Positions 5,628-38,201 of a stretch of DNA of 64,000 bases are shown here, piece by piece. The notes under the pieces are model-generated. The model saw only the letters and a list, made by a program, of their open reading frames with translations. It searched no databases and had not been told where the DNA came from. The DNA comes from Mytilus edulis (Eukaryota): contig NC_092344.1 in NCBI RefSeq assembly GCF_963676685.1, positions 57,474,001 to 57,538,000 of the forward strand. Direction: 5' to 3'. Made by a program: the position numbers and the translations under genes. Every line of letters starts with the position of its first letter. Position 1 is the first letter of the stretch.

Positions 5628-8600
5628 GATGTTTTGACCAAACCCGAGAAGACTGTGCATTCAACCACTGTCTGGCAAAGTTCCGAGATGCAAATGGGAA
5701 CCCGTCAACCATTAAAAGAACAACTGCAATTCCCTTCATCACTACAGGTATATTGTTATACTAAAATACATAATCAACATATCTATTATGTTTAATTTGA
5801 TTGATACATTGATGGCTAATATGAAGCATGATTTTATCGAATGTTCAAATGGTAAATATATTAACATTCGTACTCAGTGTAATATAATATGACATTAAAA
5901 TGGCGCATGGTTTAGATGTCATGGGGTTGGACCGAACAGTTTGAAATTCTCATTCACAACGGAAAGTTACACATGATGTATATTTATATGATAATAAAAT
6001 TGAGAATGGATAAACCGATTATCACCAATATATCATTTTATTGAGAAAAATGATTCCATCAACAGGAATGATTTTAAGAATAATTGTCTCTTTTTGCTGA
6101 ACATAAAATATGCAAAGAACAACTGTTCACTTAAGGAGGTAGACCTAGGTTCAGATAAAAAAAAAACTTATAAAATCATCAGTACGTTTGTGTCAATCAC
6201 TTTCATAAATATATTCTAAGCTTCTAGGTTACACAGAATATTATCAATCTGTTTCAGGTAAATGCTTAAAATACATAGATGAAACTGTTTTTTAATAAAC
6301 TAGTCATTTTAAGTTTCCATACTTTTTGAGAATAATAATGGAGGGCCCGTTCCAATCTAATGTCATCAGACTCTCTGTTTACAAAATGACATATTCTGCA
6401 TAACTTCAATTGGAACCAATCCAGGAGCACAGACGTAAAACATGCAATTTTGATTATCGTTTTAGATCCAAACCCGCCACCAAGAAATGGTCTTGGTGAG
6501 TCACTTGGACTTTTAGGAGGGAACTTAGCAGTTTATGTCGGCGCCGGGACTGGGGGATTTGTTGTGTTATGTATTGTCATTATTTTAGTACTATGCCGAT
6601 CAAGAAATGCCGAGAAGCATAAAAGGTATTTTTTCTTTTATACCAATACTTAAGTTACATTTACACATTTTTAGCATAAGTTTATCGGCGATTTTAAACC
6701 ATAAAAAAATACATAATTTGCATGACTTTTTCTTTTGTCTTTTAAAAATCTACCGATCTCATACGTAAAGTTATTTCCAGCTAGTCTTTGCAGTTAATTT
6801 TTATTTTGTGGTATAACACCACTGTCACATGCTAGATGAGGGTTGTGTTTAACCCTGCAAAAGTCTTTACGTGCCTATCCTCAGCCAGGCACATGTAATC
6901 ATGTGGTTGTAGTTAGTTGCTACCTGACGAATTTGGTTTTTTTTTTTCGTTCAAAGGCTAATGGGTTTTCCACTTTGAATGTTTTACTTGCGCTCATGCC
7001 TTGGCCGTTTATAACTGGTTTTTTTCAGATATGAGTTTTGCTCATTGTTTAAGACTGAATAGAGACCTGCAATTGTTAGCATCTATGTATTTGGTTATCA
7101 TGGGTAGTTCTCTCATTAGCTGTGAAATCATATTTTTCCATTTTTATATTCAACGATGAGCAAAACGCATATCTTAAAAACAGTCATAAACGGCCAAGGC
7201 ACGAGAGCAAGTTAAAGCATTACTCATGGTAACTCTTAAAAGGATAAGTGTGCTAAATAAATGTATGTACATACATGTACATAAATCGAAATAAGCTTAT
7301 TTTTTTCCTGGATTTTATTTTTGTTTAATAACAGACGGGTGATAGAGGAAGATTACAGAGTGGTGGCGACGACATTGACAAATGTAAATGATTCTGATGG
7401 TACAACGTATGAAGAATTGTGTATTGTAAGTAGTAATTGGGAAAAGGGGGGGGGGGGGGTAATTCAAATTGGAATAAAGAATAAAGTTCCTTTACACGAA
7501 AGTGCACATCAGCAAAAGCATATTAAAGTTAATGAAAAATAATGCTAGACATTTTATGATGTTAAAAATAAATCATGAACAGAATCTTTCAATTCGCGTG
7601 TCAGAATCCTATGTATTTTGGGAAATATTTCCAAAAGAGTAAACAAGAACATTGTGATGATTGGCTTGTAAGTTATACAGAACGTCTGAACCCATCGGAC
7701 AACTGATCAACGACGTCATAAACGTTATTTTAATTTTGCCAGATTCATTAAATTAACCACTATTCTTCAGATTCAGCAATGGTGAATTTGATTAACAACT
7801 AACGTAAAATAAAATCAGATAAAAAAATATTTTGTAAGGACAATGAAGTACCTGAAGTACAGGGGATATATTATTTGTTCTAAATTTGTTTTCCGAGTAA
7901 TCCGAAATTTTAAAGTAGAACATGGTATTTATTGTAAAGTATTTTTTTTATTTGAATTTCTCGGTTTTTTTTTCGATATAAGATCATATAAGTCCAAATG
8001 AATTCTTATTATTATTTCTTGTTTTTATATCTTTTTAGGACAATCCCCACTACAATCGACACGATGTCCAACTGCCGTATAAAAAAGACCGAAAACGCTT
8101 ACCCGGGGTGTCCAACGCAGTAAATTACACCTTTAAACGTTTGGTCAGTGACGATTCCACATCCTCAGCCAATACATCTAAAACCTTGAATCAAGCCTCA
8201 AATAAACCTCTACCTCCAATTCCAAACTCAAATTCAAAGACATTACCAAATTATAAACAGGCGGCCGGTGCAAAACTTTCACAGTCTATTGATGAGTATA
8301 CAGAAATAGGAGGGGAGGTGAAAAGGCGTAGTAATATATATAATCCTTTGGATTCGGAGAAATTTGGGGAATCACGTGACAGTCACGGGATATACGAATC
8401 ACTTAGAGCCAGTAAAATGATGGATATACAGAATAATCGGCCTCCTATTGGACTTCCAGATGGAGAATATTTTACTTTAGCTAAGGAAGATGACAATTCT
8501 ACTCCAAAAGAGCCCATTTCACCCGGTGAATACATGGTACTCGCAAAGGAAGAAGAAGAAAGTAGTTCGGAAAATCAAAGGTTGTTAACATCAACTGAAA

Positions 8601-8914
8601 TGTCAGAAAGTAGTTCGGAAAACCAAAGGTTGTTACAATCAGCTGAAATTGCAGAAAGTAAAAATGAACAATCGGAAATGACGCCTTACGCAGAATCGTC
8701 ATCAAGATCTGTAATTGAAGACGAGGCTGACAGTGGAATTTGTGAGAGTGGTGGACCTAAAAATGACTATTACATTCTTGAAAAGGATTCCGACAAAAAA
8801 GATCAATCTGAAAATTCAGATTATATAGAGCCAGTAAAAGGTGATCGACATTCATATATGCAAGTACTGCCAGAACATGCAAAACTTTGTCGAAAAAAAG
8901 AACTTGAAAATTAA
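5628..8914 (+). CDS. Gene A: single-pass membrane receptor/adaptor, short Cys-containing ectodomain, long Tyr-motif-rich tail
   Basis: Exons 5628-5747 (GCFDQTREDCAFNHCLAKF...), 6466-6625 (TM VYVGAGTGGFVVLCIVIILVLC then RSR), 7335-7425 (...DYRVV...TTYEELCI) and 8039-8914. All have AG/GT ends. Phases 1/2/0 match the TM-to-tail phases of genes B and C. Confidence 0.85.
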
Positions 8915-14962: not shown

Positions 14963-16904
14963 ACATTATTGCTTTTGAAAGCTATTGAGTCAATGGTTCA
15001 TACTTCAAGTGTTTTGTAGAATGTTGTTGGTCAAAATTTCGACTTAAAAAAAATAATTTTATATATATTTTTCTTTGTCCTTAACATGCTTTACGTAAAA
15101 GTTATGGTGCGAAAAACAAGAAGATGCTTATTTGGGCCCCTTTTTGGCCCCTAATTCCTAAACTGTTGGGAACTCAACTCCCAAAATCAATCCCAACCTT
15201 CCTTTTGTGTTCACAAACCTTGTGTAAAAGACCTATCCATCACAACAAATATTTAATAAAAAAAAGCTACAACAATGAAAACCACAACAACATTATATAA
15301 GAATATGAAAACAATAAAATGAATTACTTATTATGTTATTAACAGAAAGATATTATATATAGATAGGTATGTAACAATAAAATACATGTAAAACGAATAA
15401 TTTTAAAATCATATTCATCAATTTAAATGGAATTTAAAAATTATACCGTAAGACAACATGAGACGCCAACCTTTATTTTTTGTAGGTTTTTTCTCGGAAA
15501 CCATTTAAAGTGGTTTTAAATGTATATTATCCATTAAGATTAAAAGAGACGTAGAATTTACTCATTCTATCCTGGGTGTGTATTTTAACATGCACAGCCA
15601 AACGGACGCCTTCTTTAACTCGAGTTTAACTTTCGGATTTAAGATATCCAGCTATATGGTGTATCCATAGATAGACAAAGAAATGTTGCATCTGATGTTT
15701 GCTATCAATGATGTTTGCTATTCTTTAAGGTATGATGTTTGTAGTCAATTAAAAATTTATTTACCTATGATTATTATAAGAAACGATAACATGAAACTTT
15801 GAAAAAAGTATGTACATAAAATCACTGAAGTCGCTTTTGAACAGAAGCTGCACGGACTAAAAGCGTGTATAGTAATGATTATCATGTATGAGGGTTAAAC
15901 TTTACTTAACTAAATTATGAAATTTGAAATTTTTTTTTTACTAAATATTGAAATAATTTAAATATGAAAATTTTTTACTAAATATTGAAATAATTTAAAT
16001 ATGAAAAAATCCACTTTATTAAATTGGTGCGTGCAGGAGAATAAATATAGCTACAACCAGACTAGTAATGAACTTCTGATACAACGTATGGAATTATTAA
16101 ATAAACTACAACATAATATTGATATAAATACATATACTGACTGATGCATGCTTTAAATTCAGTTTACCCGATTGTTTCTTTGTAAAGTTTCTCTAGTTCA
16201 TGCACCTGTATGTAGCCAATAATAGTAGTTGGAGAAATGGACAACCTTGCTTGATCTTCGGTCATAATTTTTAAAAACTGTTTGAATTACAAAAAACTAT
16301 TACCTTTTATATGGAAACAAAAATATTGGGATTAAATTGTATTAGATATCATCCAAACACTCAAACATATAACGAGAGTTTTCTTTTATATTGAATGAAA
16401 AAGTACATCAAATGATTATTTTTTTTAAATAAGAATAATTGTGTTTGGTATCTTCCCCTCTTTTTTATGGACGACAACGACACAAATAATATCAAGCGGT
16501 TTCTGATAAACTGAAATGTAAGCAAAATTATCTATTACCATTTTCGCTTTGAGTTAAACTGTATATTTAAAAAAAAAACTTAATATATAGAAGATCTACA
16601 TTACTATATCAGAAAGATTAATTACAACTAGACGTGTAGGTGTATGTATATAAAGTTACATGTTTATTTGTAACACAGGTATACGAATGTATGATTAGTC
16701 AACCGTGAAGCTTGATGGATCAGGGGACATGAAAATGACAGTTAGTAATTTCATTTTAAGAGATATGTCATAATCAGATTATTTAGTATCAAATTTGTAA
16801 TGATGAAACACATGATTAAGTAAAAATTAATGTCGTACGTAAGGAGAATTTGAACAAGTGTTTTTTTCTTCTATCCGTACAGTAATTTAGAATTAAGTGT
16901 TTAG

Positions 16905-18298
16905 TGTTGTGAAAAATATGGACATTGCAATAGACTTTATTGAGCCTCGTGGAATTGACGAAACAACCACAGTGAGAAATGATCTTCAAACGGAAAAGTT
17001 TAAAAGTTATGCAGATGAATTAAAGATAAGGAAGGAAGAAAAGTTAAAACGTAAGGAACAAAAGAAGAAAGACAGAAAAGAAAAGAAATTAGAAAAAGCT
17101 GAAAGAAAAAAAGAAGAGAAACAATTACGAAAAAATGGCAAACTCGATAACACAGAAATTGATGTCAGTTTTACCACTATTAAGCAGTCACCGGATGAAA
17201 ACATTTCCTTTTTGGGAACACAGAATTCAGGAAATGACACTATCTCGGAAATATCAAGTGCAAATCTTCCTCCGAAAGAATTTTCGGAGAATGTGAAAAA
17301 TGTGAAGATAAATAAAAAAGATGGAATACACATTATTTCACAGGAATATGTGAAGAATTTAATTAAAAATGCACTAGAAGCTAGAGAAAATAGCCCGGAA
17401 GCAAAATTATCGAAACCTATTCCATTGTCTATTGTGACTTCAACTAAACCGAACATGCTACTGTCGACTTTAAAGTCCACAACAACTACTGATTCAATAG
17501 CAGGAAGGGATGAATTAATGACAAACGTTCTGAGTGAACCTCGAGTGAGTCCAACAACTTTTGAGTTTGCCACACGAGAAAGTAATAAGCCAACAACAGA
17601 AAGTACAAACACAAAAGAAAGAACAACAAAAGCGTTTTCAACATTGTTACCAGGGGTTGATAAGCAAACAGCAAAGCCAAAAGCTATTTCGACAACAGAA
17701 AGAACGCAACACATCAGTGAATTTCCACAACCAGGAAATGAAAACATTAAGGAAAAAGCTTCTGTAACGAAAACACGAGAAGTCACCACTGTAAAATCAT
17801 CAGTAGATGCTGCAATTATAATTCCAGAACTCACAACGATCAAATCAACGGAAGTAGAAAAACAACCGGAAATAACAACAACAAATGTAACCAAAAAATG
17901 GACAACTATCGAAACAACAACAGAAATGAAAACACTACCTAAAATAAAAACAACAAATGTAACAAAACAAACGACAAATGTTGAAACGATGACTAGTTTA
18001 CCTTCTACTGTCTCACAACAATTAGGAAGTACTATTAATAACACTTCTTCGACATTCACTGCAAAAAATGTAGACACGAAAGTCCCGGATGAGGAAAAAG
18101 ATATAAAGGAATCTAGTAATACAACATTGAACAATATGCCAAAAGAAGCACATTCTGGTTCTGGTTCAGTGTTTGTCCAAGAAAATAAAAACTCAAATTC
18201 AACTAAAGCGGATGATATTGATATTATTATATTCCCATCTAAGAGAGCAGATAAAAGGAGAAGAAAGCAAGAGAGAAGAAGATTCTGTTCTAATATTG
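16905..18298 (+). CDS. Gene B mucin exon B1 (Lys/Glu-rich segment, Thr/Ser-rich stalk, first Cys of the Cys domain)
   Basis: Lies in the 469-aa ORF. Ends IFPSKRADKRRRKQERRRFCSNI-G|GTAAGT, phase 1. The start is a candidate acceptor (TTTAG, 16904). Confidence 0.8.
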
Positions 18299-21200
18299 GT
18301 AAGTGAGTTTTTCAGCATAATTGTTTATTGTATATATGCATATGGTGTACAAATGTTTATATACATACTAGATACTGTTATCTATTCATTTTATGTTAGA
18401 AGGGCGATAGATGGACAGGTCATTAAAAAGATTTGCATATGTATTGTCTATAATGAACAACTAGTAATATTCATCTTCTGTTGTGTAAAAACTCGTTATG
18501 AAACATCAACTAGGGTAAAGTATTCGAAGGAAACGGATTTTTATTTATCTTTGGGCAAGGCAATTCAAAATTTAGTTTAAACTAAACTATAACAATGGTC
18601 AAAAACAAAAATAAAAAAAATCCGAAAATAGATATGATTAATCGTAGGTATTTTCCTTCTCATTAATATACTGGTGCTTTTTGTATTTGTTTATTGTTTT
18701 TGGGGATTATTTTGTCTTCAACGAATGACGTTCTGAGAGAGATCATACCTATTGGAAGCAGTAAGCGGTTAGGTATTCGCGTTTGACTGTGATTAGCTGT
18801 GGTGTTTAGGTAGATTTGTACGTCATATATAGTGTGTTAGGTGGTTACGAAGCCTGTGACAAGTGAACCGTAATTTGATGGATTTCGGGACATGAAAAAT
18901 GTCATTTAGTTATTTCCTTCCACAAGATACGTCATAAGCTAATAATCTGAATTTACAGGGGCTTCTATGTTACAACATCCTATCCTCGAAATATTCAGCG
19001 CTAAATGGATATTATCTTCTTTTAATAGCTTTTTGCTTATAAGCTAAATTCAAGCAAAAGCATCTTTCAATAATTATAATATGTACATATCGTAAAACCG
19101 TTGCAAAATGGTCATCTTTGCGAGGTATGACACATGCAGTAATAACTTTGACGTTGACACTTGTACGCTTAATGATGACCAATCGGTTGCGTGATTGGTT
19201 CGACGGTAATTAAGCAGTTATTGTAGTGTATTGTGTACAATAAACAGAATAACTTTTATGGAGTTTCGGAATACATAACATATAATTGGAATATACTTAT
19301 TTAGACTCCGTGAACCTTTAAGAGATACATCCTTCTACACGCTTTTTTATACCGAACATAGAAAATGAATTTAAAATCTGCTGATGTGCTTCAACCGAAA
19401 GCTATGTTTAATAATAAGCCAATAATATCACCGGACGAAATAAGAAAGATGCTGGATAGAATGAACGATAAAGTTAAACAAATTCATAAACTTGGACAAC
19501 AGGTGCTAAATGGATCCTCAACTAGTAAACCGACAACACAGCCAGCGAAGGAAACAACAATAAAACTAATACAAAGCTCAACAGGATCTAATATTTTGAA
19601 TGGGACAATAACAAACAATACAACAAATGGTATTGATGATCAAAATATAGACGTCAATACAAAAGCATCAAATGAAACATTGACAACAACATTGGCTGTG
19701 TCTACAAAAGCAAAGCAGACTGAGTCATCAAAATTGTCCCCTAACGACACTACAGAACCAACTGTAACAACAAATACAACAGTAACAACAATAATTCCAA
19801 AAGGATCCAGTTTCGAATCCAATGCTGTGAAAACTAATGAATCTTTGAACACCGGTGATAGTGATTCGGACACAACAACACCGGAAACCATTCTTTCAGA
19901 CGATGAAATAAAAAAGGCACAAAACGCTGCAACAAACGATAATGATTTTTCGATTTTTCGAACGTCTGAGGCGGAAAGAAAGCAACGAAAGAAGGAAATA
20001 AAATTGTTTTGTGCTAGAATTGGTGAGTTTGGTTTTATGAGTGTAACCAAACTATTTTCATCCTGTATAGTTATTTTTTTAAAATTCAAACTTTAATTTT
20101 AAGGTCGTTTTAAGTTAACGCGTCATAGTAATTAGTTATTCGCCTTAAAAGTTTACATATTCATTAATTACAAAACTAGCTACACACTACTTGTATATGT
20201 TGACAAGCTCACGAAGTGTGATTTATGTAATAGGACCAACAAAATCTCAACGTTCGTGTCTGAATTATAGCTTCTGGACAATTGTACTGTCTTCGGGGTC
20301 TTTTCCTTGTGTTATGATTTCGTTACTAAATTTCGCCCATATAATATTATGGATAGGTTACGTACGGTGCGCAAGAGAAATATGAAACCAAATGATGATA
20401 TTTGCGGGGACGAACCAAGGCGTATGTTTTTTGTTTTTATAATTTAATGTTTTGAAACAAATCTGTGGATTTATTTTTATCTATTTAAAATTTAATTACA
20501 GCAGTCGCTCATTTTTTCTTGTCGCTCCCACGCAGCGATCTAGCATAAAAAAATAAGCGATTACAGAGAGTTATTATTAGTAAGATACGATTTATTGATT
20601 TATTTTCAACTTTTTGGGTAGACCAGTAAATCTTTGCAGTCTATTGTTTGTCTTTTGTATATAAGCTCACAATTAAAGGGTTTGCTAATTCAAATTTTAG
20701 CTCTATTTGTATTTTTCACGTTTTCACGATTTATTGCAATTTAGTGATTATGTCGTGAAAACGTTAAAAATGTCACATTGGTTGAATCGGAAACGGTTTT
20801 TAAACCAAAACAAAGAGAACGTTTTGTAGAAAATATTAAAGAAAATATGTGTTTCATATTTTTTATCAATTTAATCTAGTCTTATTAAGATTATTTTTTA
20901 AATAATCCAATTGGTCTTATTTCAATGAAAAACACTGTACATGTAATGTAATAAAACTAAACAATAGAGTATAGGCAACAATAATTATTTTATATATTTT
21001 AGAACTATGACTAGAAAATAAGGCCTTTGGCTATGTTATTATACACTTATTAACATGCATTTGATTAATTCAGTTTAACAATGATATATATGCGACATAA
21101 ATGATATTTAATATATATAATGATAAGTCCAAAAATTATGTAGACTTTGCGTTTATCTTCGAAAGATAATGTAGTTTCGGGGTTCTGTAAGATAAATAAA

Positions 21201-24200
21201 CTTTTAAAAAAAATACATTTGGTGCAAATATATATTAAAATTAAAATGAATTAAATGTATTTCATAAAAACTTATTTAAGCATCGTTTTTTAAAGAACTT
21301 TGAGTCCGGTATATTTTTTTTTTAAATTTTATTATGTTTATAAAAAATGGCATTTCCTAAAATCCTACCAAAAAAAAGTTGTTTCATAGATATGTATGTT
21401 ACTATGTTGTTGTTATCTATTGAAGAAAATGTTGCCATGGAAACACATTTTGGAACATATCTTTTCTGTATTTGCAGATTTCGGGACTGCCAAGAAAGGA
21501 TTTCAATGTTGCAAGAAAACTTTGAATTGTTTTGATGACCTACCAGATGATCTAGATGAGACAGTTTTCCACAATGGCCAACGTCATTATAATGAAGCAG
21601 AAAGACTCCATGTTTGTCAGTAAGTGTATATAAAGCTCTTCCATAAATGTCACTTTCGATTTGGACTAATATTTAGTTTTTAGAAATATTTAGTTTGCCG
21701 ATCTGACGGTCGCAAATACAGTATTACCTAACTTGCGAAGCGTAACAGATATTTGCGAATGTGTCAAATCAAAATTTACAGCGGCAACTCTATCAGAGCT
21801 CAAGGAGCTGTTATTCCAAAACTAATGCATTTCAAAAAGAAATGATACAATTGATTTTCCTGTTTGTAATTTTCTCTCATCAGTTACATGTTTATATACT
21901 GCTTTAAATCTACAATGTTGACAAGTGAATTTTGTTTCAGAGAATTGTGCTGTTTCCATCAACGCCTTTTTTGTTCTAAAATTGTCAGATATAAATAAAA
22001 TACAAAAATAAGCAGGTGTAGTATGATTACCTTTGAGACAACTCTCCATAAACTTAACTAGTGCAGTTAATTTAAATGGTAAAAAAGTGAACCATTTATT
22101 GTATGCTGATGATTTATTGTTGATATCAGAATCTGCAGATCTAAAAGAAGACATTTGTATGTATTTCCCATTTGGTCCAATGTTAAACTAAGTCCCCCAC
22201 TGGCGCCCATCTTGGATGATGGATCGGCTACAAAGTAACAACACATGGTTATCACCTCATAGGGAACATTCATACTCCATCATTGACTAGATCTAAATGA
22301 CATAGAAGTTTACAACTTCATAGTGTGGTATCCAAAATTTTGCTCTCCAGCTTATTAATACTTGTTGGAGGTTATTTCAGAAATAATTGACATCAAAATC
22401 ATATGTTTTATTTATATTTCAGCCATATTGACGAAGCTTTAATTTGTCAGGGTGATGTGTTCAGTAGAACAGTCTGTCAAGATGTCAACCCAATTATGGA
22501 AGGCAAGATCAAGCCACAGTTGGACAAAGTCAAGTTATTTTATTACAATCATTGTAACAGAGGTATGTAAATTTGATATCATTAAGGGATCGACCATTTT
22601 ACTTCAAGAAGAAATGGGGGTGTTATAGTTTTTTCCTACAACAATATTTCCCCCGTACCTTATAATGTTAAATTTTGAAATGATAGCGTAGAAAAAAAAA
22701 GTTTTCTGACTCAGACAAAAAAACATAGTTCCCACCTTTTACAGTTAAATAATTTTCCCCTTAACAAATGGAAAAATACTTTGAATGCATTTAGATAGGT
22801 AACAGTTGTAGAAAATGATGAATATTGAACATATTTTAAGATAGAACACATTCGTGAGATTAAATTCAGGAATTAAATGTAAAATGGACAAGCTATAGGA
22901 AAACAGTGTTTAAGGTTATATAACACAGTTTCAGAAGTAAATTTTTGTCTTGATAAAATGATGTCTCCCATCACGAGAAAAAACAAATAAAATCCTGTGT
23001 CAAACACTTGTCATTGTTATTAGTTGCAAGATACCATTTTAATTAGCCGATTTAAAAAAAAAATTAACTGTGTATTCCTTTGTAGGGACCGCGATAACAC
23101 CAACAGGAGGAAACCCTTCACAAAAACCACACCCACACCCACATGTCCCACCCACTGTGCCTGGAGGAACAGGAACAGGATCAGAACAGTATCACAGTCA
23201 CACAAACTCTTACGCTCCGTACATTGGAGGTGCCATCATGGGTGTGTTTGCTCTTGTTATCATCGTTCTATTTGCTATCTATTGCAGAAAGCGGGTAAAC
23301 AAAAGGTACGATTTTTTTTTCTTGATTTGCTCCCGCTTATTTTCATTTAATTCAAATGAAAATATGCCGATGTTAATTGTATTTGTAGAAATAATCCCAA
23401 AGGTTCGTCAAAGGCTACCAAAAAAAAAAGATTTACAATACATATAATTGGAAGAAACAGCATCGTCGACATAAAATGAAATAATATTTAACAAACGGGT
23501 GACCCCTTACCTCAGTGCAAGAGACTGCTGAATGTATAGATAGCAGCGAAAAGGTTTAAACTGCTTGTTTGTAATGGAATTTAAGTTATAAAGTTTATGA
23601 CATTTTAAATAATTTAAAAGGCTTTAAAAGACTTAATTTATAATGTATTTGGAGAAAAAAAATGAAACGAGTTTCATCATGGAAAACTTTACACGTACTA
23701 CATAATCTGTGGTAACCTGTTTTTTTATGCACCAGTTTCAATAGCTACGTACATGTAGAAGATGAGAGCACAAAATTTTCATACTAGTTTTATGTATTCA
23801 ATTTCAATGAACATTTTTTAATGTTTCTCTAAATGTTTACAGGAAAAGAAACAAAGAACAGAGAAATGATCCCGGACGTGAATCTACCCAGTCTTCCAGG
23901 TATAAAACTGTCAGTTATAACAGACGGAAGTCAGATGTGTATGCTGAAATTGATGAGAAAAGTGTAAGTATAGTCAAGGTGAAAAGAATACAATAACATA
24001 AAGGTGTCAGACCACCAATTAAAAATCCCTATCTGTTCAACCAAATTTTGCAATTTTCACAGCTTTCTAAATATTTTACCTTAAGTTTACTTCAAGGAAA
24101 CCAGGTATATCATGAATTGCACATGTATCACCTTTCTACATGCCAATTTTCAACCAATGTTTAAAGTCTTATAAGAAATTTTTGATCTTGAAAACACAGG

Positions 24201-25530
24201 TTCTACCAAAATAACTCCTGGTTTTCTGGAAATCTTAAATAAGTGTACAATGTAGCGAATTAATCATGAATTTTTAATGCAAACTCTCAAAATGGTCTAA
24301 ATGTATCTCCCTTTCATCAAAAGTTTCATTTCTGCACCAAAAATGAACGAAAAACAAACGACAACCACTCAATTACAGGCTCCTGACTTAGGTCAAGCAT
24401 ATACAAACATTATGTGACGGGGTTAAACATGTTAGCAGGATCCCAATCCTTCCTCTAACCTGGGACAGTGGTGTTACAGTACAGAATAAAAACGAACTAT
24501 AACATTCTGTTGAAGAATGTCAGATGGATACAAATAGAAATACATCTTACAAAAACACAGAATGTACATAGCTGGGTATTGGTATATATTCCAACAACAA
24601 AAAGACACTAAGTACTCACAGCTAGTTCAAAGCCACTAACAACTAATAAAAAAAAAAAATACAAGTTTTAAATTAGTTTATTTCCGCAATTTTCCAAGTT
24701 TATTGTTATTATATAAGATCGATGTTAAGCAGTTGCGTTAATTTTCTTCTAAAAAATCTAAATAATCACCAGTATAAATAGACGAGTTTTCCGTAATGTT
24801 TCCAACGATTTTGACATGAAAGCACTTGGAATTTACCAATTATGGTAGAGCTGACGACTATTTTGCACGGACACATATATTTTTCAAACCAGCCTGACTA
24901 TTTGGAATTTGGAGTATATATGGCTCAAAGGACTTGTGATATGTTGCTTTCTGTATTAAATATATATACGTGAATCAGAAGTTTATGTGTACTACACATT
25001 TATTCTTGGTCACGCAAAATCCCGTGATTTTTATTGCAAAACTTAATTTTTAAATTTCATATCTTTGATTATACAATGATTGTTTACAATCCTATTGAAT
25101 CTTTCAGATGATATCGTCTGTGAGTTATAATATTGATGGACATTCGTGTTCCACGGACGTCACCAATCTCTCAAATCATTCGAATACAAGCAGTTTTTCT
25201 AGGAAATATCAAAGCGCTCCTAGCATTCGACAATTAGAGCTTGATAACCATGGTTACCTTTCACCAGAGTCAATCCTACCAGCCGATGAACTGAAACCGA
25301 ATATAGAAGACGAAAACACGTCCACGCATGGGTATATCGAACTGAACTCTGAACTGGGAGATAGTGGACAGTCATATGCTAAACTTGAACCGGAACCGGA
25401 AGACGAGTACATTCAAGCAGACGAAATAGAAAGTACTCCAAACAAGAAAAAGAAACCAGACGAGCAAGGTCACATGTACTTTGTTCTTGAAAAGGAAAAT
25501 GAAGAATATGACAAAGTCATGGATCAGTGA
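16905..25530 (+). CDS. Gene B: mucin-stalk / 8-Cys-domain single-pass receptor with ITAM- and ITIM-like tail
   Basis: A mucin exon (B1 ~16905-18298 or B2 ~19362-20022) is followed by 21478-21619, 22423-22562, 23086-23305 (TM YIGGAIMGVFALVIIVLFAIYC then RKR), 23843-23963 and 25108-25530. Splice sites are canonical and phases 1/2/1/2/0 join in frame. The two Cys exons (142 and 140 nt) equal those of gene C. The 5' end is unresolved. Confidence 0.85.
19362..20022 (+). CDS. Gene B mucin exon B2 (alternative Thr/Ser/Asn-rich stalk)
   Basis: Lies in the 243-aa ORF. Ends IFRTSEAERKQRKKEIKLFCARI-G|GTGAGT, phase 1, homologous to the end of B1. Confidence 0.8.
22060..22145 (+). pseudogene. Tiny LINE reverse-transcriptase fragment in a gene B intron
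   Basis: Translates to VNHLLYADDLLLISESAD. Confidence 0.7.
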
Positions 25531-28500: not shown

Positions 28501-29909
28501 TTTGTATTTTTTATACACGTCGCTGGATAATTCAAAGTAAAATTGAAAACAGTTTTGCTCTTCTCTGATGAACTTCTTAAAATTGTGATAGAATGAAATT
28601 CCGAAAGGCAACTGATAGAATAACTTCCAAATGCTAGCTTAAGAGTGCATCAAATTGTATAGCAGTTTGTAAAAACACGACACTTTTTTGTTGAGGAGCT
28701 TGATTTATCTTTACTAAAAATATATGGTTAAAACGTTAAGCTTATTATTAAAAAGTTAACTCCCTTATGTGTTATATCATGGTAGAACTATCAGAATACA
28801 TTTAAGAATAAATTTATGCAAAACAGTGCTGCTGTAGAACTGTCTGGATCTGAACTTGAATAGAACTTTTCAATTTGTTCTAGGCTAGACTGTCTTGATC
28901 GGATCTAGGATAAAACTTTCCAAATGTGTTCTAGGGTAGAACTTTCCGGTTCGGAACCATGCTAGTAAAACAATTAATTTTCAATCAAATATTTATGTTA
29001 TAAATAGATTATAATTATAATGATTATCCCAATGCATGGAGGAAATATAATTCTAATATTTCCGTAAATATTTTTGAAAAACAATCTATTCCAAAGTACA
29101 ATTTTACACTTGTGGAAGTCTGCCGTGGGAATTTATTATTTTCAGGTGAAGAAATGGTTCTAGTATGAAATTGATTCTGAAGAAACTAACCTTTATCTCT
29201 TTATTCACCCTCATTCTAGCATTGGTCATTTAATTTTTAGAAAAAGGGCTAGGGACGTCTCAAGGATTTGTTTTAAATTTCAATTTCTTTTTTTTTTGTA
29301 TTTTACGTATGTTTTGGAACATAAACATTACAATGAGTCCGATCTAAAATGTAACCAAGAATCCTACTAGCATCCGTGCATGATCACAAGCTTTAGTGAA
29401 TAGTTACCACACACTATTTTTTTCATTCACAAATAATTTATAAATTTGATGAATTTTCACAAAGTCGAACAAACAGTGAAAAAAAATGTAACGTTTTTTG
29501 AATATCTAAATTTGTCGTTAAGTCTAGTAGAGAAAACATATTTAGTTAAAAATAAAAGTATATCTCTCAATATGTAGATTTGTAATAAAATCATGCATTA
29601 TATAATATACACCATTTAACAGAGTTATCGCACTTGAAATTGACATCGCCAACGGAACACTACAAACATCACCATTTTTTTTCTTTCTAAAACCGGTTGT
29701 GGAAGAACAGGTGCAAAATCCACTGAAATAAAGCAGTTTTTTTTATATTAATTTCATGAGAAAATAGCATGACCCTTAGCTTAAAGAGGCAAATCAAATC
29801 AAATCCTTTTATTGGTGTAAAATCCAAATATTGGATTGTTACCAAGACACACATGACAATCATTCCTAACATACAAATTAACAATATTGAAATATAAACA
29901 GAATTCATA

Positions 29910-31980
29910 TTGACAGTCCATTTTCAATATCAGAAGTAAAGAACTGTATAAAAGAATTGAAATCAGGGAAAAGCGCTGGACCTGACTAAAATTATAAAAT
30001 ATAGTAGCATTGTAACAGTTGCATCCATAGTTAAACTTTTTAATCTTATTTTATCATCTGGCATTTACCCTACTAGCTGGAGGAAAGCTTTTATTGTTTT
30101 GATCCACAAGTCTGGAGATAAAGAAGACATATGTAACTAGAGAGGTATTTCTATTTTAAACTGTCTAGAAACATTATATAGCTCTATTTTAAGCAAAAGA
30201 CTAATAAAACATTATGAAAATAAGTTCTCCAGTCATCAATTTGGATTCCGTTCAAATCATAGAACGTCTGATAGGATATTTATTCTAAAAACTGTTGTCA
30301 CCAAATACTTGAAAAAAATAAGACAAAGCTGTTTGCTTGTTTTGTAGATTTGCGTGATGCTTTTGACTCTGTTTGGCATAATGACCTGTTGTATAAATGA
30401 TGGTGTTGGTGTAAAATGTTATACTACTTTGAAAAATATGTATAGCTTATCCCAGTCTGCACTTAAGATTGGTAATGAACACTCTTTGTTTTTTCTAATT
30501 ATTAGAGGTGTAAGACAAGGGGACAGTTTAAGTCCTACTTTGTTTAATTGTTATATTAATGATTTACTTTTGATGAAACTTGCAACCCTCCAGTTATTGA
30601 CAGTTCAAGTGTCCAAACTCTCAGTTATGCAGATGATTTAGTGTTACTGTCTAAGACACACCAGGGGCTTCAAAATGCATTAGACAAACTAAATTAATAT
30701 TGTATTAAATGGCAGTTGAGTGTAAATACAAACAAGACTAAAATTCTAGTTTTTCAGAATATTTATAAACAATACCGCCCCCCCCCCCCCTCGATCTTGT
30801 TCAATGATAAATTTTTGACTGAAGTTAAGGACTTTAAATTTCTAGTGAATTTTATTATTTAATGGGGAAATTTTACAAAAACTACTGAAGAGCTGTCTAA
30901 AAAAGGTATCAAAGTTTTATTTTTATTGAGAAAATATATTTTCAATTTTGTTCCCACTAATTTGTCATGTAAATTATTTGATACTCTTATAATACCTATT
31001 TTGACATACAACTCTGAAATTTGGTTTATGGATAATTTTCAGTCAACTTTTAGGGCATCAAATAGAGCTGCTGTAAATAATACTTTTTGTGACACTCTTG
31101 CATTAGCATAAAAATATCCTTTTGAGAAGGTTCATTCTAAATTTTGTACAGCAGTATTAGGATTGAAAAAGACAGCCACTAACATAGGTGCTAGCTCAGA
31201 ATTAGGTAGATTTACTTTGGACTCTTATATAAAAACGCAAACACTCATGTATTTTTATAGAATAAACTGTAATGATATTAATCCCCTGGTTAAAGAATCT
31301 TTACAAACAAACTTAAATTTACATTCTGCAGGAATTTATTCTTGGTACTAAAATTTTTAAAGATATGAAAATAAACCCTGAAATTTACTCTAATATTAAT
31401 GTACCTTTTAAACAATCAAAAAACGTGTTAAAATGTAATATTAAAAAGTATGTTTCAGAGGAAATGAAAACACTACTTTAAATAAACTTTTAAAATTAGA
31501 TTCCTCATCAAAACTTTGTCTTTATGGGAAATTAAAAACTAATTGTCAGTCTGAGGAATTTCAATATTTAAATTGCAATAATTTTATACATAGACAGTTA
31601 CTCTCAAAATTTGGACTGAGTGATCATTCTCTAGGCATTGAATTGGGAAGGTACAGGCGTTCTAATCTGTTTGCTTATCTAAAAGAAAATATACCATTAT
31701 TTCAACATCTTGATTCTTTTCATAAACTAAAACGCATTCTAAACCCCATCCCTGAACTTGTTTGTAATATTGGAGTCTTCATTAAGCAGTCTTTAGAACT
31801 GAGGGGGTAAGACCCATGTCAGACAAGCTCATGATTTTGTTTTATACATCAATTTATAATTTGAACTCTTGAAATATGTTCAGTTATAGTGTAATGTATT
31901 TTATTGTATTGCATTGTGTTTAAAATGTATAAATGTTTGTTTGTATTGCTTGACCCTTTTGGGTGTAATTTTGCAATACA
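29910..31980 (+). mobile_element. Decayed 5'-truncated LINE (RT and 3' region, many stops and frameshifts)
   Basis: Motifs LKSGKSAGPD, RGVRQGDSLSPTLFNCYINDL, YADDLVLLS, KLFDTLIIPILTYNSEIW, ELGRFTL and LSDHSLGIELGRY. Confidence 0.9.
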
Positions 31981-32734: not shown

Positions 32735-35700
32735 TTTCAAAAAGTGGCGACCATTCCGGAAGTTCGGAACATCAACATGTCGGATCAATTAAGATTGACA
32801 ACTGTAAGTAATTCATCGATTAACGTTCGCTCGGGTACAAGCAACTCCGACATTCATGCAAATACTATTTCTAACTTATTGACATTGGTCAAGCACAGGA
32901 AAAGAAGGGAAAGAAAGAATACATTTGGAACAAATTTGGAAAAAAAATTCGGTAGTGATGGATTTTCTAGAAGACCTATCCTAAATTCTGCTGTGTCATT
33001 TGGAATTACAGATTCACATTTGACCTCGGGATCATTAGTAAATCCACCAGAATTACATAGAAAACAAATCCAAAGTGAAATGGTTGTCACAAGCGCAATG
33101 ACTTTAAATAACAGTGGACATAAAGGACTAAAAATATTAACGCCTAAAATGGTTAGAGATTACAGTGGTCAGTTTCGACCTTTTAAACCGAGAAAACCAA
33201 AAACTCCAACAACAACAACTCCAGAAATCCAAAGTTTAGCTGGATTAAATAGAACAACAGTATCTTCGACAACAGTTACTACTGCTAATAGTCCTGTTCC
33301 GGTAAGCATTGCACCAAACGAAAAAACAACTAAAGCGGGAACCAGTTTGAATCCGCATTTTACCACAGTTGGCTATAGTTCCGAAGAATCGGCTACTGTT
33401 ACTGAAATTCCGATTCAAAACAGGACTGATGAAAATGATACGCATTCTGCTCCTGAAAAGGATGAAGAACTTGTGCCAGCCACACATGGTGATAAAGATT
33501 CCTTATCACCAGACAATTCTGTACAAATTAATGAAACTTCTTTAGCTTTTGACTCCAATCTAGTAATTCCCCAGATGGATCTGATGATGTTTCCTTCTGC
33601 AAGAGCAGACGTTAGGAAAAGAAATATAGAAAGGCGACGATTTTGTGCAGGATTTAGATTGAGTAAGTTAATTTAAAACCTTATTGTATACATTAGCGGG
33701 ATAATGACTTTTTGTGCTTGACATTCAGAAGCGTCTGCTATTCCGTTATGTAAAATCAAAATTTTGAATATTGTAAAGAAAAACAATTATTCAAGTTTTT
33801 GCTTTTAATTCTCATTGTTACAAGTAAAATAAATAAAAAAAAAATTAACAAACAACAATATTTTTGTTTAACATAATTATGTTAGATATCATACTTTTTT
33901 GTAATTTTTATAATAATCACCCTCCTTCTCCTTTTTTTATATTACTATTTAATAATTTCAGAAATATGAAAATTGATCATTACTATGTTCATATAATGTA
34001 AATATTGACAATAATGATCTAACATGTGTTATGATGTCGGGGATATACAAACTGAGGCTTACAAGATTTTATTTAGAAATTAATAAAGTTTCTATGAAAT
34101 CATGATGCATTTATAATAATACAAACAAAACAAAACAAAAACAATACACCATATTTAAAGTTATATATATTTATTATTAATAACACAGATAAATTACTCT
34201 ATTTTTTTCAACTAAAAAAAAAATAAATTTCGAGCAATATTTTATACATCATTTTGAAACATTAGTTTTCATTAGTTTTATTACCCCCCTTTTTTATATA
34301 AAAGAATGAAAATAACGAAAATATTCAAGAAAGTTGAAGTCTTTATTTGTCTCGAAAGAGCTAGAATTAAGAAAGGCAAAAAAGTTTATTGGTTTCAGTT
34401 TGAAAATGAATTCTTCAACTGATGAACTTTCATTTTATTAGAATATAAGTAATTAAATTTAAATGTATCATAATAATTATTATTCAGATATTGGCAATGC
34501 AAACGTTGGCTTGCGATGCTGTATGAGGACATTAAATTGTTTTGACAATCTTCCACAATATCTGGATGAAACATTGTTCCACCGAGGAAGACACCATTTC
34601 AGTCCTGCTGATAGACGCCATATTTGCCAGTAAGATATTTAAGGATATTAAATTTTTGTTCATTTTAAATTTTTCATGTGTTTTTATCTTTTTTTAAAGA
34701 AAAAGTATGCACATCCACAACAGTATGAACAGTCAGCACTTTTGTACCTTGTACCTCAGTTATGAATTTTGTCTCTCCCTCTGTCATTCTGAATATGCAT
34801 GAAATATTTGCCACTGGACGTCAAGCAAACGACAATCAATCATTTGTCTCTTGATTTACAACTATTATTATGTTTACTACAATACAACATGTACATGTAG
34901 CACTGGTATTATATATATTAGTCTCTACTGGGACTATAACCTATATGATTTTTCAATTATACATAGACCCGGAACAAAGCATGGAAATGCTGATGGTTTA
35001 TCCCGTTGCCCCCAAGAACAGTGATTATGCTCTGAAAATGACACTTTAGAAAGTTTAAAGTGTGGACCCTGTAATAAATGCATTAAGAGATCCCGATAAA
35101 TGGAGAGTACTCTCATAGAAAATAACCCCAAATTTTTGTCCCTATTAGGGCAGTTATACCCGAAGTGAAACTGCTGACTTGGAAAAGAAGTATTGGACAA
35201 AATGGAAAGAGAAATATAGCTCTAGTAAACTGACCCAGTATCAAGAAGATGATGCAGATATATGCCCTATTCTTGATGGCTTAAGAAAAATGAAAAGCCA
35301 ACTGATTTGACCCTTAGTAGTCCAACAACCCTGTTTTTTGTTACTGTACAATAGTATTAGTGAATATTATACAGATTTATATTTTTACATGTACTTATTT
35401 TCATATATATTATTTTTAATTCACATTTTAAGAGAAATAATGTTTATATATGTTTTAACTTTTTAAAATTTTTTCATATAATTTTTTTCTAATTTTAGAG
35501 ATATAGACGATTCCATGCATTGTTTAGAAAGAGTATTGGATAGAGATAACTGTAAACCAGTTACTTCTTTAATGAACAGGAAAATGTCGTCACAGATGGG
35601 AAAAGTCAAACAGTTTTATCAGAATATTTGTCCTAATGGTATATATAGTTATTTTGTATTCAATTTCAGAAAATGAGGTATATTTTAACCTCCTTGGTTT

Positions 35701-38201
35701 CAGGAAACATATAAGGGGAAGTAACAACTAATAAGATTACGGAAATAATAATTAGCTCGATACATTTATGTCCCTTTTATTGGTAATTCAGCACTATATC
35801 GATAAAAACTAACAGTTCAATTGTTATACTATAAAAATACAAAATGTATACTGCATGAATACAAGAAAGGTCAAATACAGACAATACAGAAAAAACCTCG
35901 AGAATATAACATAATGTTAAATTAAACACTCTCGAGATGGAAAACAGCGGTAAACGTGCATTTTCTCTTTAAAATAAATAGTATTCTTTATTTAAGTTCT
36001 TGGTTTCAAAATGTGTATACATAGAGCTGCCTGAGAATTGCTAAACGCTAAACGTCCTGTTTTACATGAAATGTACCATGTATTTGATGTTAAAAATAAA
36101 AATAAATGGTTGATACAGGAACACAAGTAATAAGTAACTGAATAAATGATCAACAATTTGCTAAGGAACCGGTTACACTGACAAACAACTACAGTAGGTG
36201 AATAACAACCATACGGTAGATGGATTCTTATCTATATGGCCTCCCAACAGAAGAGACAGCACGCGCTCTCCCAAAATGGGATATCTGATTTAAAGTCGCT
36301 ATTTTGACGGGACGAGTTTCGGCTTTGATATATCATACATGGATAAGAATAAAAAAACAACAAAACACCATCTGATTGAAGAGACAAGAAAATATTTTTT
36401 TACAATAACTTAACTTCAGACATGATGATTTGATATTTGTGCATCCTGCATATTTTCAACTAGATGTAGAAATTAATGTCATTCAACATGGATTTCAAGC
36501 ATATAAGTTTGGTTTTTCAGATCCACATATTTCCACTGTCCCTCAAAATGGAAAACCTACTACACCAACAAACCATAACAATCTTAAAAGCAAAGGATTC
36601 GGACCAATCCCGGGATCACTATTACCGTTTGTAGGAGGTACCATAGCTGGGTTGATTCTATTATCTATAATCCTGCTAATTGTGATATATTGTAGAAAAC
36701 AATGCAAAATCAAGTAGGTATACCATTTATTTTTATATATAGCATTTAATATAGATTCCTGTTTTAGGTATAAGAGTAAGAGAAATGGTGAAATATATAC
36801 GTCAAACATTAGTTTTATCCCCACACATTCCACTATTTTCTATATTATTTATATCTTGGACAATCCTGTAAAAGCGCACGGAGAAGAAATTGAACTACTT
36901 CAGTATCAACTATTCTAACCATACAGACGTATGATGAATGAAAACATTATCCCGGTTTTCCCCACCTGAAGCCACTTGTATAAAATTCTGAAACTTATAC
37001 GTATCATATATATCGTTTTATAAATTTTTCTAATTAATGCAAAACTTTTTGGTCCATTTGTCTAGAAGTTTTTCACAGACACGTATCTTCAACCAATATT
37101 ATAATCATGCGTTAAATTCATATTTTGTTGTTGCAGAAAACGTAATTCTGAAAGTCAAGAATCAAGTTTCGAATCCGACCAATCATTGAGGTATAAATCA
37201 GTTTCCCACAATCGACGGAGGTCTAGTGCTTATGAAGAAATAGACGTTCATAAAGTAAGTTTATGGCTAATAAAATAGAATACACGAACAAACTCAGAGG
37301 AAAAATTGTTTTTTCTTTTTATGCCCCACTAAGGGGCATTATATAGTTATTCGGGTTATAAACCGCTGCAGGTTAAAGTTTTTGAAACTTAGTACATACA
37401 TGTATGTTCCCTTTATTTTTTGACACCAATTTCACTGTCCACTGAACATAAAAAAAAATGATAGTACGGGTGGGGCATCCTTGTATTATGGACGCATTTT
37501 TGTTTGTTTGTTACCGGTATGTCAATCATTTGTTTAACAACACCAAAATGTGGTTATGATACAATACTAGTGTATTTGGAATGTAGTTAGCCTATTTGCC
37601 TTTTCTTAATTTTGCTTTGGCGCTGTCTGTTTGTTATTCCACTTATGGTTTTTGAATGCAGCATTCGTATTTCCTTCTTTGTATTTGTAGTATTCATATA
37701 TAACATGTAGCAAGAGGTTTAGAGCGGTAGCATGTAACAAGGGATTCAAGCTGTATAAATGAATAAGTTGTATCATTTATGTATAATTTAATTATCTATT
37801 GTCGCCAGTTTTATACTCAGCCTTTGTTTATTTTCTAGATGGTCCCTTCAATAAATTCACCAAACAAAAAGAAGAATCATGGTATTGACGAATCACGCAT
37901 ATCAAGGAAACTACCTAGTGCTCCAAGTGAGGAGGGATTTAAAACAGGAAATCATTACTATTTATCTCCAACTTCGAGTTTACCCGAGGATAACCGAATA
38001 AACGATAGTGATAAAGGCGTTTCAAATTTCGGGTATTTAGATCTACAAACGGACGAGAACGGTCAGTCATATGCCAAATTAAAGACAGAAGAGGGAGAAT
38101 ATATTACACCAGAAGAAATAGAAAGTACACCAAAACAAAAAGAGAAAAATCCAAAAGAAGAATATCATATGTATTTTGTATTAGAAAAGGAGGATGAATA
38201 A
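32735..38201 (+). CDS. Gene C: paralog of gene B (mucin stalk, 8-Cys domain, TM, ITAM/ITIM tail)
   Basis: Exons ~32735-33662 (...FPSARADVRKRNIERRRFCAGFRL), 34488-34629, 35499-35638, 36521-36713 (TM FVGGTIAGLILLSIILLIVIYC then RK), 37137-37254 and 37839-38201. Phases are the same as B. Shared motifs include CC..TLNCFD.LP..LDET.FH.G, GQSYAKL, EIESTP and HMYFVLEKE. The 5' end is unresolved. Confidence 0.85.
34945..35330 (+). pseudogene. Ty3/Gypsy pol fragment (RNase H C-terminus and linker) in a gene C intron
   Basis: YDFSIIHRPGTKHGNADGLSRCP...CGPCNKC...QYQEDDADICPI, with internal stops. Confidence 0.8.
37316..37505 (+). mobile_element. Internally deleted HINE-like copy
   Basis: Shares TTTTATGCC, CAGGTTAA, TGAAACTTAGTACA, TCCACT.AACATA and GGGGCATCC with 3963-4253. 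Confidence 0.6.

Follow-up and report, generated by a model that had tools for sequence, protein, structure and literature searches.

Alternative first exons probably place a long, a medium or no stalk on a shared single-pass receptor in Mytilus edulis

A 64,000-nucleotide stretch of Mytilus edulis DNA (assembly GCF_963676685.1, contig NC_092344.1, positions 57,474,001 to 57,538,000; hereafter the window, numbered from its first letter) contains a gene, here called gene B, that occupies positions 16918-25530 of the plus strand. Its constant part consists of five exons common to all forms, and three variable exons (B1, B2 and B3) lie ahead of it. Our reading, to which we give a probability of about 0.7, is that these are alternative first coding exons, each with a promoter of its own, spliced onto a shared single-pass receptor that carries a long, a medium or no stalk as a result. 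A first-pass annotation of the window had proposed a variable-exon/constant-region design produced either by alternative promoters or by exclusive splicing. The design holds, in that B1 and B2 are both spliced and the variable exon supplies the first predicted helix and the first cysteine (Cys1) of a cysteine domain; of the two mechanisms, alternative first exons are favoured over exclusive splicing. The annotation had counted two variable exons and missed B3, as well as the two classes of N-terminus in oysters and the lack of a signal peptide.

All exons of the gene are on the plus strand. The coding part of B1 (16918..18298) is an open frame that was correctly placed by the first-pass annotation at about 465 residues; with its start at ATG 16918 it encodes 460. 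An in-frame stop lies 24 nucleotides 5' of this ATG, and the RefSeq orthologues use the same methionine. B1 comprises a lysine-rich stretch near the N-terminus, a serine/threonine-rich stalk, a basic helix and Cys1; its reading frame ends IFPSKRADKRRRKQERRRFCSNI and is followed by a phase-1 GT donor after 18298. The coding part of B2 (19365..20022, 219 residues) comprises a conserved N-terminal helix followed by the same succession of stalk, basic helix and Cys1; it ends IFRTSEAERKQRKKEIKLFCARI, with a phase-1 GT donor after 20022. B3 (20349..20421, 24 residues), located by its match to M. californianus isoform X3, has its own ATG, no stalk, one cysteine (DICGDEPR) and a weak donor that is also in phase 1, as for all the variable exons. 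Constant exon 1 (21478..21619), placed by contig joints, alignment and frame, carries Cys2-5 of the helical domain, and constant exon 2 (22423..22562) carries Cys6-8. Constant exon 3 (23086..23305) encodes a Pro/Gly/His linker, the single transmembrane helix (~23223-23285) and a basic cluster behind it; exon 4 (23843..23963) encodes tail with RYK and VYAEI motifs, and exon 5 (25108..25530) five more conserved tyrosine motifs, including YFVLEK, and the stop. Joined to the five constant exons, B1, B2 and B3 give open frames of 808, 567 and 372 residues, each with exactly eight cysteines ahead of the single transmembrane helix.

Transcript evidence came from four runs aligned on 17800-21700: two contig sets (runs X1 and X8, from different studies and with different organism labels) and two raw-read runs (X21 and X24), which gave 2 and 0 reads, too few for any test. 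B1 and B2 each splice straight onto exon 21478: the joints 18298>21478 and 20022>21478, with GT..AG ends, are both present in run X1 and in run X8, as expected from the strong in-frame phase-1 donors that the first-pass annotation had described. The first letters of constant exon 2 form the loose end behind 21619 in both runs. The annotation had also proposed a search for a joint between 18298 and B2; none is among the joints listed, which are just the two onto 21478. Its two refuting cases, that one exon is never transcribed or that both are included through a cryptic phase-1 acceptor, were not borne out, as B1 and B2 are both joined to 21478 and none of the six phase-1 AGs inside B2 was seen in use in either run. 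B1 joined to B2 at AG 19361 would reach a stop after 467 residues. The predicted loss of frame is therefore correct; the use of 19361 as the acceptor of B2 is not seen, since it is crossed unspliced in both contig runs, with no loose contig end there, and the argument that a joined product would leave a ninth, unpaired cysteine is moot because the product stops before the cysteine domain. RefSeq isoforms X1/X2 of M. trossulus and X1/X2/X3 of M. californianus correspond to B1/B2 and B1/B2/B3, so that separate splicing to one constant exon is seen for B1 and B2 in contigs and for B3 in the RefSeq isoform X3 only. One contig of run X8 has at least 255 unplaced letters joined at 18112 to the 3' part of B1; 27 of these were not found in the own genome, and the contig may be a chimera, an allele or a further 5' end.

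The 5' untranslated region (UTR) of B2 (18590..19364, plus strand) is of uncertain start: cover at exon-like depth begins at ~18590 in run X8, and cover begins at 19056 in run X1. Contigs 19056-19540 (X1) and 19219-19560 (X8) pass 19361 unspliced, again at exon-like depth, and the leader contigs hold frame-shifting indels at 19160, 19169, 19252 and 19342/19343 (five sites). On this evidence B2 most likely serves, in these samples, as a first exon that has a long 5' UTR. Its ATG has an in-frame TAG 6 nucleotides upstream, and every mussel start methionine has an in-frame stop 6-81 nucleotides upstream. A good donor at 19124 inside the B2 leader could pair with the acceptor at 19361, removing a 237-nucleotide UTR intron and several upstream ATGs.

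A duplicated element was found upstream of B1 and B2. The B1 copy (16682..16782, plus strand), likely a promoter or 5' UTR element, ends 136 nucleotides 5' of the B1 ATG; the B2 copy (18846..18946, plus strand) lies inside the covered stretch in run X8 and upstream of cover in run X1. The two are 73% identical over 103 columns (E 1.7e-10), a score reached by 0 of 200 shuffles. When the B1 element was searched as DNA against the own genome, no place besides 16682-16782 was returned; the reach of this search is limited, as it also missed the B2 copy. Weak likeness was found in the DNA upstream of gene C, a tandem paralogue (38 and 2 of 200 shuffles), and none before B3. ATG 19081, which lies 135 nucleotides behind the B2 element, was considered as the decayed original start of B2 and rejected, the intervening DNA being unlike that of B1 (166/200 shuffles). 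Alternative first exons are favoured over exclusive cassette splicing because B2 is contiguous with its upstream DNA, each form starts at its own methionine, preceded by a stop in frame, and the upstream element is common to B1 and B2. Separate promoters for the variable exons are very likely on this evidence.

The relationship between the variable exons was also examined. The first-pass annotation had described B1 and B2 as alike at their ends and unalignable in their bodies, and both statements are upheld: the C-terminal 39 residues are 13/39 identical (E 1e-4; 0/300 shuffles reach the score), and the bodies show no likeness (185/300 shuffles reach the alignment score). The exons are very unequal in length (460, 219 and 24 residues), the likeness of B1 and B2 being confined to the last 30-39, and B3 resembles neither of the two ends (242 and 63 of 300 shuffles reach the score). 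The 24 residues of B3 are 21/24 identical (87.5%) to the start of M. californianus isoform X3 (367 residues). Identity to the same species is 73% for B1, 66% for the middle (stalk) of B2 and 88% for the first 50 residues of B2. The greater conservation of B3 than of the B1 and B2 stalks argues that it is a real exon, and there is a good probability that it is used in M. edulis. The frame is also open upstream of the B3 ATG (20271-20348), where it includes a CTG close to its beginning and a stretch of mild hydrophobicity; a non-AUG start there is possible, and unsupported.

The eight cysteines are invariant in 9/9 rows of the domain alignment. The B2 and B3 forms were modelled with AlphaFold2 from 21 and 22 sequences; the models had a whole-chain predicted local distance difference test (pLDDT) score of 45 and 56, and contained a helical domain (block pLDDT ~74-92 except in one loop) and the transmembrane helix, with low confidence elsewhere. 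In the B2-form model a helix at residues 205-220, supplied by the variable exon, ends at Cys1; in the B3-form model the corresponding cysteine falls in a short helix of lower confidence (pLDDT 64-74). As modelled, the variable exon supplies the first helix and Cys1 of the eight-cysteine domain, and each form would close the same four putative disulfides with a different flank. No Pfam family scored above cut-off for the proteins of genes B and C or for those of oysters and scallop; a sequence search of the PDB gave a single match at E 0.74 and none better; and Foldseek gave 0 matches at E 0.001 with the two models. The best hits of the VIA fold search with these models were generic helical bundles, at Z 6.0 (root-mean-square deviation 5.0, 112 residues aligned) and 6.3 (5.0, 102 aligned). 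As far as the models allow, these searches indicate neither a known nor a new fold.

Seven tyrosine motifs (RYK, VYAEI, GYLxP, GYxxL, SYxKL, YI and YFVLEK) are common to the five tails listed, from mussel genes B and C, two oysters and a scallop. We take these motifs to be candidate SH2/PTB sites; the shared helix and tail would then be likely to recruit SH2/PTB-type partners, and a signalling role is predicted. The stalk unit TTQPAKE (19530-19570; compared with P0001 and P0009) occurs once here, twice in M. galloprovincialis and five times in an M. edulis protein, and B2 stalk length appears from these sequences to vary also by repeat number.

Each protein has a single hydrophobic segment (the second-best 19-mer scores at most 1.05), and no signal peptide was found in any form examined: the best 9-mer in the first ~50 residues scores 0.2-1.8 in 14 sequences, by simple hydropathy rather than SignalP. 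All the named Mytilus, oyster and scallop sequences retrieved, like the Logan proteins read, start with a hydrophilic N-terminus. The residues ahead of the transmembrane helix number 164 (B3), 359 (B2) and 600 (B1). Net charge is +4 to +8 behind the helix and -2 to +1 before it, with a basic cluster behind the helix in 5/5 proteins. According to PMC2373506, positive charge behind the hydrophobic (H) segment favours an N-out orientation, and N-domains of more than 200 residues are described as translocatable by a downstream signal-anchor (citing Kida 2005). An N-out topology is predicted from the charge excess behind the helix and the lack of any signal peptide: the N-terminal part would be threaded into the endoplasmic reticulum (ER) once the helix emerges, as in a signal-anchor protein of type I. 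A disordered stalk and a disulfide-dependent domain would stay threadable. This topology is marginally favoured over its alternatives taken together.

Relatives were found only in mussels, oysters and one scallop. A protein of Mytilus galloprovincialis shares 93% identity with B2, and B2-type proteins occur in five Mytilus species. RefSeq orthologues, all named 'uncharacterized', are LOC134726309 (M. trossulus), LOC127719020 (M. californianus), the oyster genes LOC133187904, LOC134242106, LOC111105810 and LOC105326467, and LOC117331577 of the scallop; a literature search with six LOC identifiers of the family found no mention, and supplements outside that search could list them. A domain profile retained 47 proteins among 7996 scored candidates, those with names being from Mytilus and oysters and the rest unnamed Logan proteins; run against 1.84 billion representatives it gave 10 matches, adding the scallop protein and four short fragments.

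The oyster main form has a basic run and a cysteine three residues before the junction, like B1 and B2. A second, unrelated oyster N-terminus of 170-183 residues (S. echinata, S. cucullata, C. virginica and one Logan contig) ends LDCGDESAQ or IDCGDGSAR and joins the same constant residue. Both oyster N-termini are taken as exon ends because P0057 and P0066 read through at the junctions, P0057 in the way expected of one uninterrupted exon. Sequence comparison makes it likely that B3 and this CGDE exon are homologous, B3 then being an older second class shared with oysters. The B1 end is closer to the gene C end than to the B2 end (scores 85 and 61), and a lysine-rich stretch near the N-terminus is common to B1, oyster and scallop, so that B1 looks like the ancestral type. 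It is likely that an ancestral basic-helix exon and its upstream element were duplicated in tandem to give B1 and B2. The duplicated element fits the copying of an exon and promoter together, which PMC1885805 describes for Ugt1 variable exons. Oyster main forms differ by an optional 46-48 residues just before the basic helix (P0007/P0008, P0018/P0021, P0023/P0039), which by sequence looks like a further way to alter stalk length.

Several observations weigh against this account. No listed run is on record as RNA, and X1 and X8 were taken as RNA by guess, although the spliced joints and empty intron bins argue for RNA. Contigs drop rare forms and can show neither transcript starts nor levels, so that promoter use by B1, B2 and B3 is something we infer. 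A strong acceptor lies before B1 at 16882, and B1 may on that account have an upstream non-coding exon; the B2 leader holds 15 upstream ATGs. The B3 donor is weak (score 0.2), and B3 has depth 0 and no joint in run X1 or X8. Its match to the oyster CGDE exon is short, about four residues, with a score equalled by 3, 10, 6 and 60 of 1000 shuffles. The allelic changes in the stalks show hardly any synonymous bias, at 6/21 and 4/13 against 22% expected (34 coding changes scored among the 40 shown of 99). The label 'mucin' given to these exons by the first-pass annotation refers to composition, serine and threonine making up 33-38% of the stalk cores; N-glycosylation sequons are not enriched in the stalks (8 seen) over shuffles (7.2 and 5.1 expected). 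The mussel tail has 4 sequons where 1.7 are expected (p 0.07), and the oyster tail has 1. An N-domain of 360-600 residues is far beyond the cited precedent. Finally, B2, B3 and gene C each have, as their nearest in-frame stop, a TAG that might serve as a phase-0 acceptor, and a signal exon may have been missed on that account; TAG makes up 18% of stop triplets.

The last point underlies the alternative that survives best, in which gene B encodes an ordinary type I receptor and an unannotated signal-peptide exon splices in phase 0 to a TAG acceptor before each variable exon. Such TAGs are present at 19361, 20270 and 32734, with the frame open to the methionine, and a signal peptide is the usual route for such a receptor. 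However, the equivalent TAG of B1 (16890) is followed by TAA, and in the B2 leaders there is no splicing, while their indels shift the frame. A search for an exon of the form ATG-hydrophobic stretch-donor listed 11 candidates, none convincing, and the N-termini of all named Mytilus, oyster and scallop proteins fetched, and of the Logan proteins read, are hydrophilic. A missed signal exon is therefore considered unlikely.

The same exon logic could also serve a protein of inverted topology, with the N-terminal part cytosolic, its basic stretches directing it to the nucleus or to membranes, and with a luminal tail, acidic and rich in tyrosine. The missing signal peptide, the very long and lysine-rich N-terminal part and the sequons of the mussel tail would suit such an arrangement. 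It is nevertheless hard to reconcile with the basic cluster behind the helix in 5/5 proteins, with eight invariant cysteines that suit disulfides, with the single sequon of the oyster tail, or with tyrosine motifs conserved like SH2 sites, and is somewhat less likely than a missed signal exon.

If one promoter and one common upstream exon served the gene, and B1, B2 and B3 were internal exons used in mutual exclusion, this would account for the acceptor-like sites at 16882 (14/17 pyrimidines), 19361 (11/17) and 20270 (10/17), which resemble true acceptors, and for the two accessions that represent one protein in M. trossulus isoform X2 and hence imply variable leaders. The unspliced passage of contigs over 19361 in both runs, without a loose end, and the duplicated upstream element of B1 and B2 are contrary to this, and donor 19124 in the B2 leader is a candidate partner that could account for acceptor 19361; that UTR intron might also explain the two M. 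trossulus accessions. In the Dscam type of cassette, internal alternatives are joined to a common upstream exon, and B2 is instead contiguous with its upstream DNA in both runs. Exclusive internal exons are improbable. A further reading, in which either exon is a dead copy or the B1/B2 pair is an assembly artefact, would suit the weak synonymous bias of the stalks and the lack of B3 in runs X1 and X8, but is highly improbable overall and already refuted at the RNA level for B1 and B2, which are both spliced in two runs and intact in several species, with 0 stops among the 34 allelic changes.

Three plus-strand genes with tyrosine-rich tails, A, B and C, stand in a row in the window. Gene C (32777..38201; exons 32777-33662, 34488-34629, 35499-35638, 36521-36713, 37137-37254 and 37839-38201) has one first exon only, which is B1-like, and no signal peptide. 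No further first-exon end or CGDE exon was found in the window, and three exons used as queries against the own genome returned only genes B and C. In M. californianus the gene C model begins ~95 residues further on, and a second copy, short at the N-terminus, is present in M. coruscus (P0060). Gene A (5629-8914; exons near 5629-5747, 6409-6625, 7336-7427 and 8040-8914) encodes a single-pass protein with a tyrosine-rich tail (YFTLAK, YMVLAK, YYILEK); its cysteine-containing exon matched neither Pfam nor the gene B domain profile. On the minus strand, a retrotransposon of the long interspersed nuclear element (LINE) type lies in pieces at 42363-48810, with RVT_1 at 44243-45865 (E 3.6e-23), flanking frames and an ORF1-like frame at 48031-48810, and a decayed LINE-like stretch occupies ~29900-31800 of the plus strand.

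Neuregulin-1 types I/II offer a partial parallel to gene B: a single-pass gene in which alternative promoters place different N-termini on a shared cysteine domain, with no classical signal peptide known; it differs in having EGF and Ig domains and in being a vertebrate ligand. The nearest design is that of the multiple-variable-first-exon genes (UGT1, GCNT2 and the clustered protocadherins), which, according to PMC1885805 and PMC3325998, likewise have tandem first exons of one phase spliced onto common exons, and a conserved upstream motif. In contrast to these, gene B has only three variable exons, of very unequal length and two unrelated classes rather than paralogues of similar length, and its splice falls within one small cysteine domain. 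UGT1 variable exons also each encode a signal peptide, whereas those of gene B do not. Compared with a classical type I receptor or membrane mucin, gene B has the one helix, the basic residues behind it and the tyrosine-motif tail (5/5 proteins), and lacks the cleavable signal peptide. Synaptotagmin II and other type I signal-anchor (type III) proteins (PMC2373506, PMC2175286) resemble it in having no cleavable signal and one hydrophobic segment with positive charges behind; the synaptotagmin II N-domain is 60 residues and engineered cases exceed 200, against 164, 359 and 600 in gene B, where the topology is predicted. The domain itself is cysteine-rich and modelled as helical, like DUF19 (T20D4.11-like, PF01579). 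DUF19 is the sole named Atlas cluster shown for the scallop domain, and its score of 0.76 (139/256 features), the value given by both Atlas queries, is a sub-threshold lead, below the lead level of 0.9; none of 9 domain sequences matched Pfam DUF19 at E up to 10.

Genes built on variable first exons are already familiar, and the gene B isoforms have entries in RefSeq; without the points on topology and the cysteine domain, gene B would be a case of ordinary, already annotated alternative first exons. What appears unusual is a splice inside a small cysteine domain with the cysteine count kept in three forms, two head classes in mussels and oysters, and a missing signal peptide across three bivalve groups. 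Tentatively, these may be combined: a receptor family of mussels, oysters and scallop may thread an ectodomain of up to 600 residues over the ER without a signal peptide, while promoter choice swaps the first helix and Cys1 of the eight-cysteine domain together with the stalk, the two head classes having been kept since the mussel-oyster split. If the topology holds, the B1 form would be a natural N-out signal-anchor protein with an N-domain about three times the length of the precedent cited, and the forms with 164, 359 and 600 residues before the same helix would constitute a length series for the limit of N-domain translocation. In that case gene B, from a bivalve family so far unstudied whose Tyr-signalling tail is conserved, would be an example of a promoter choice that alters part of a small disulfide domain and determines its distance behind a glycosylated stalk.

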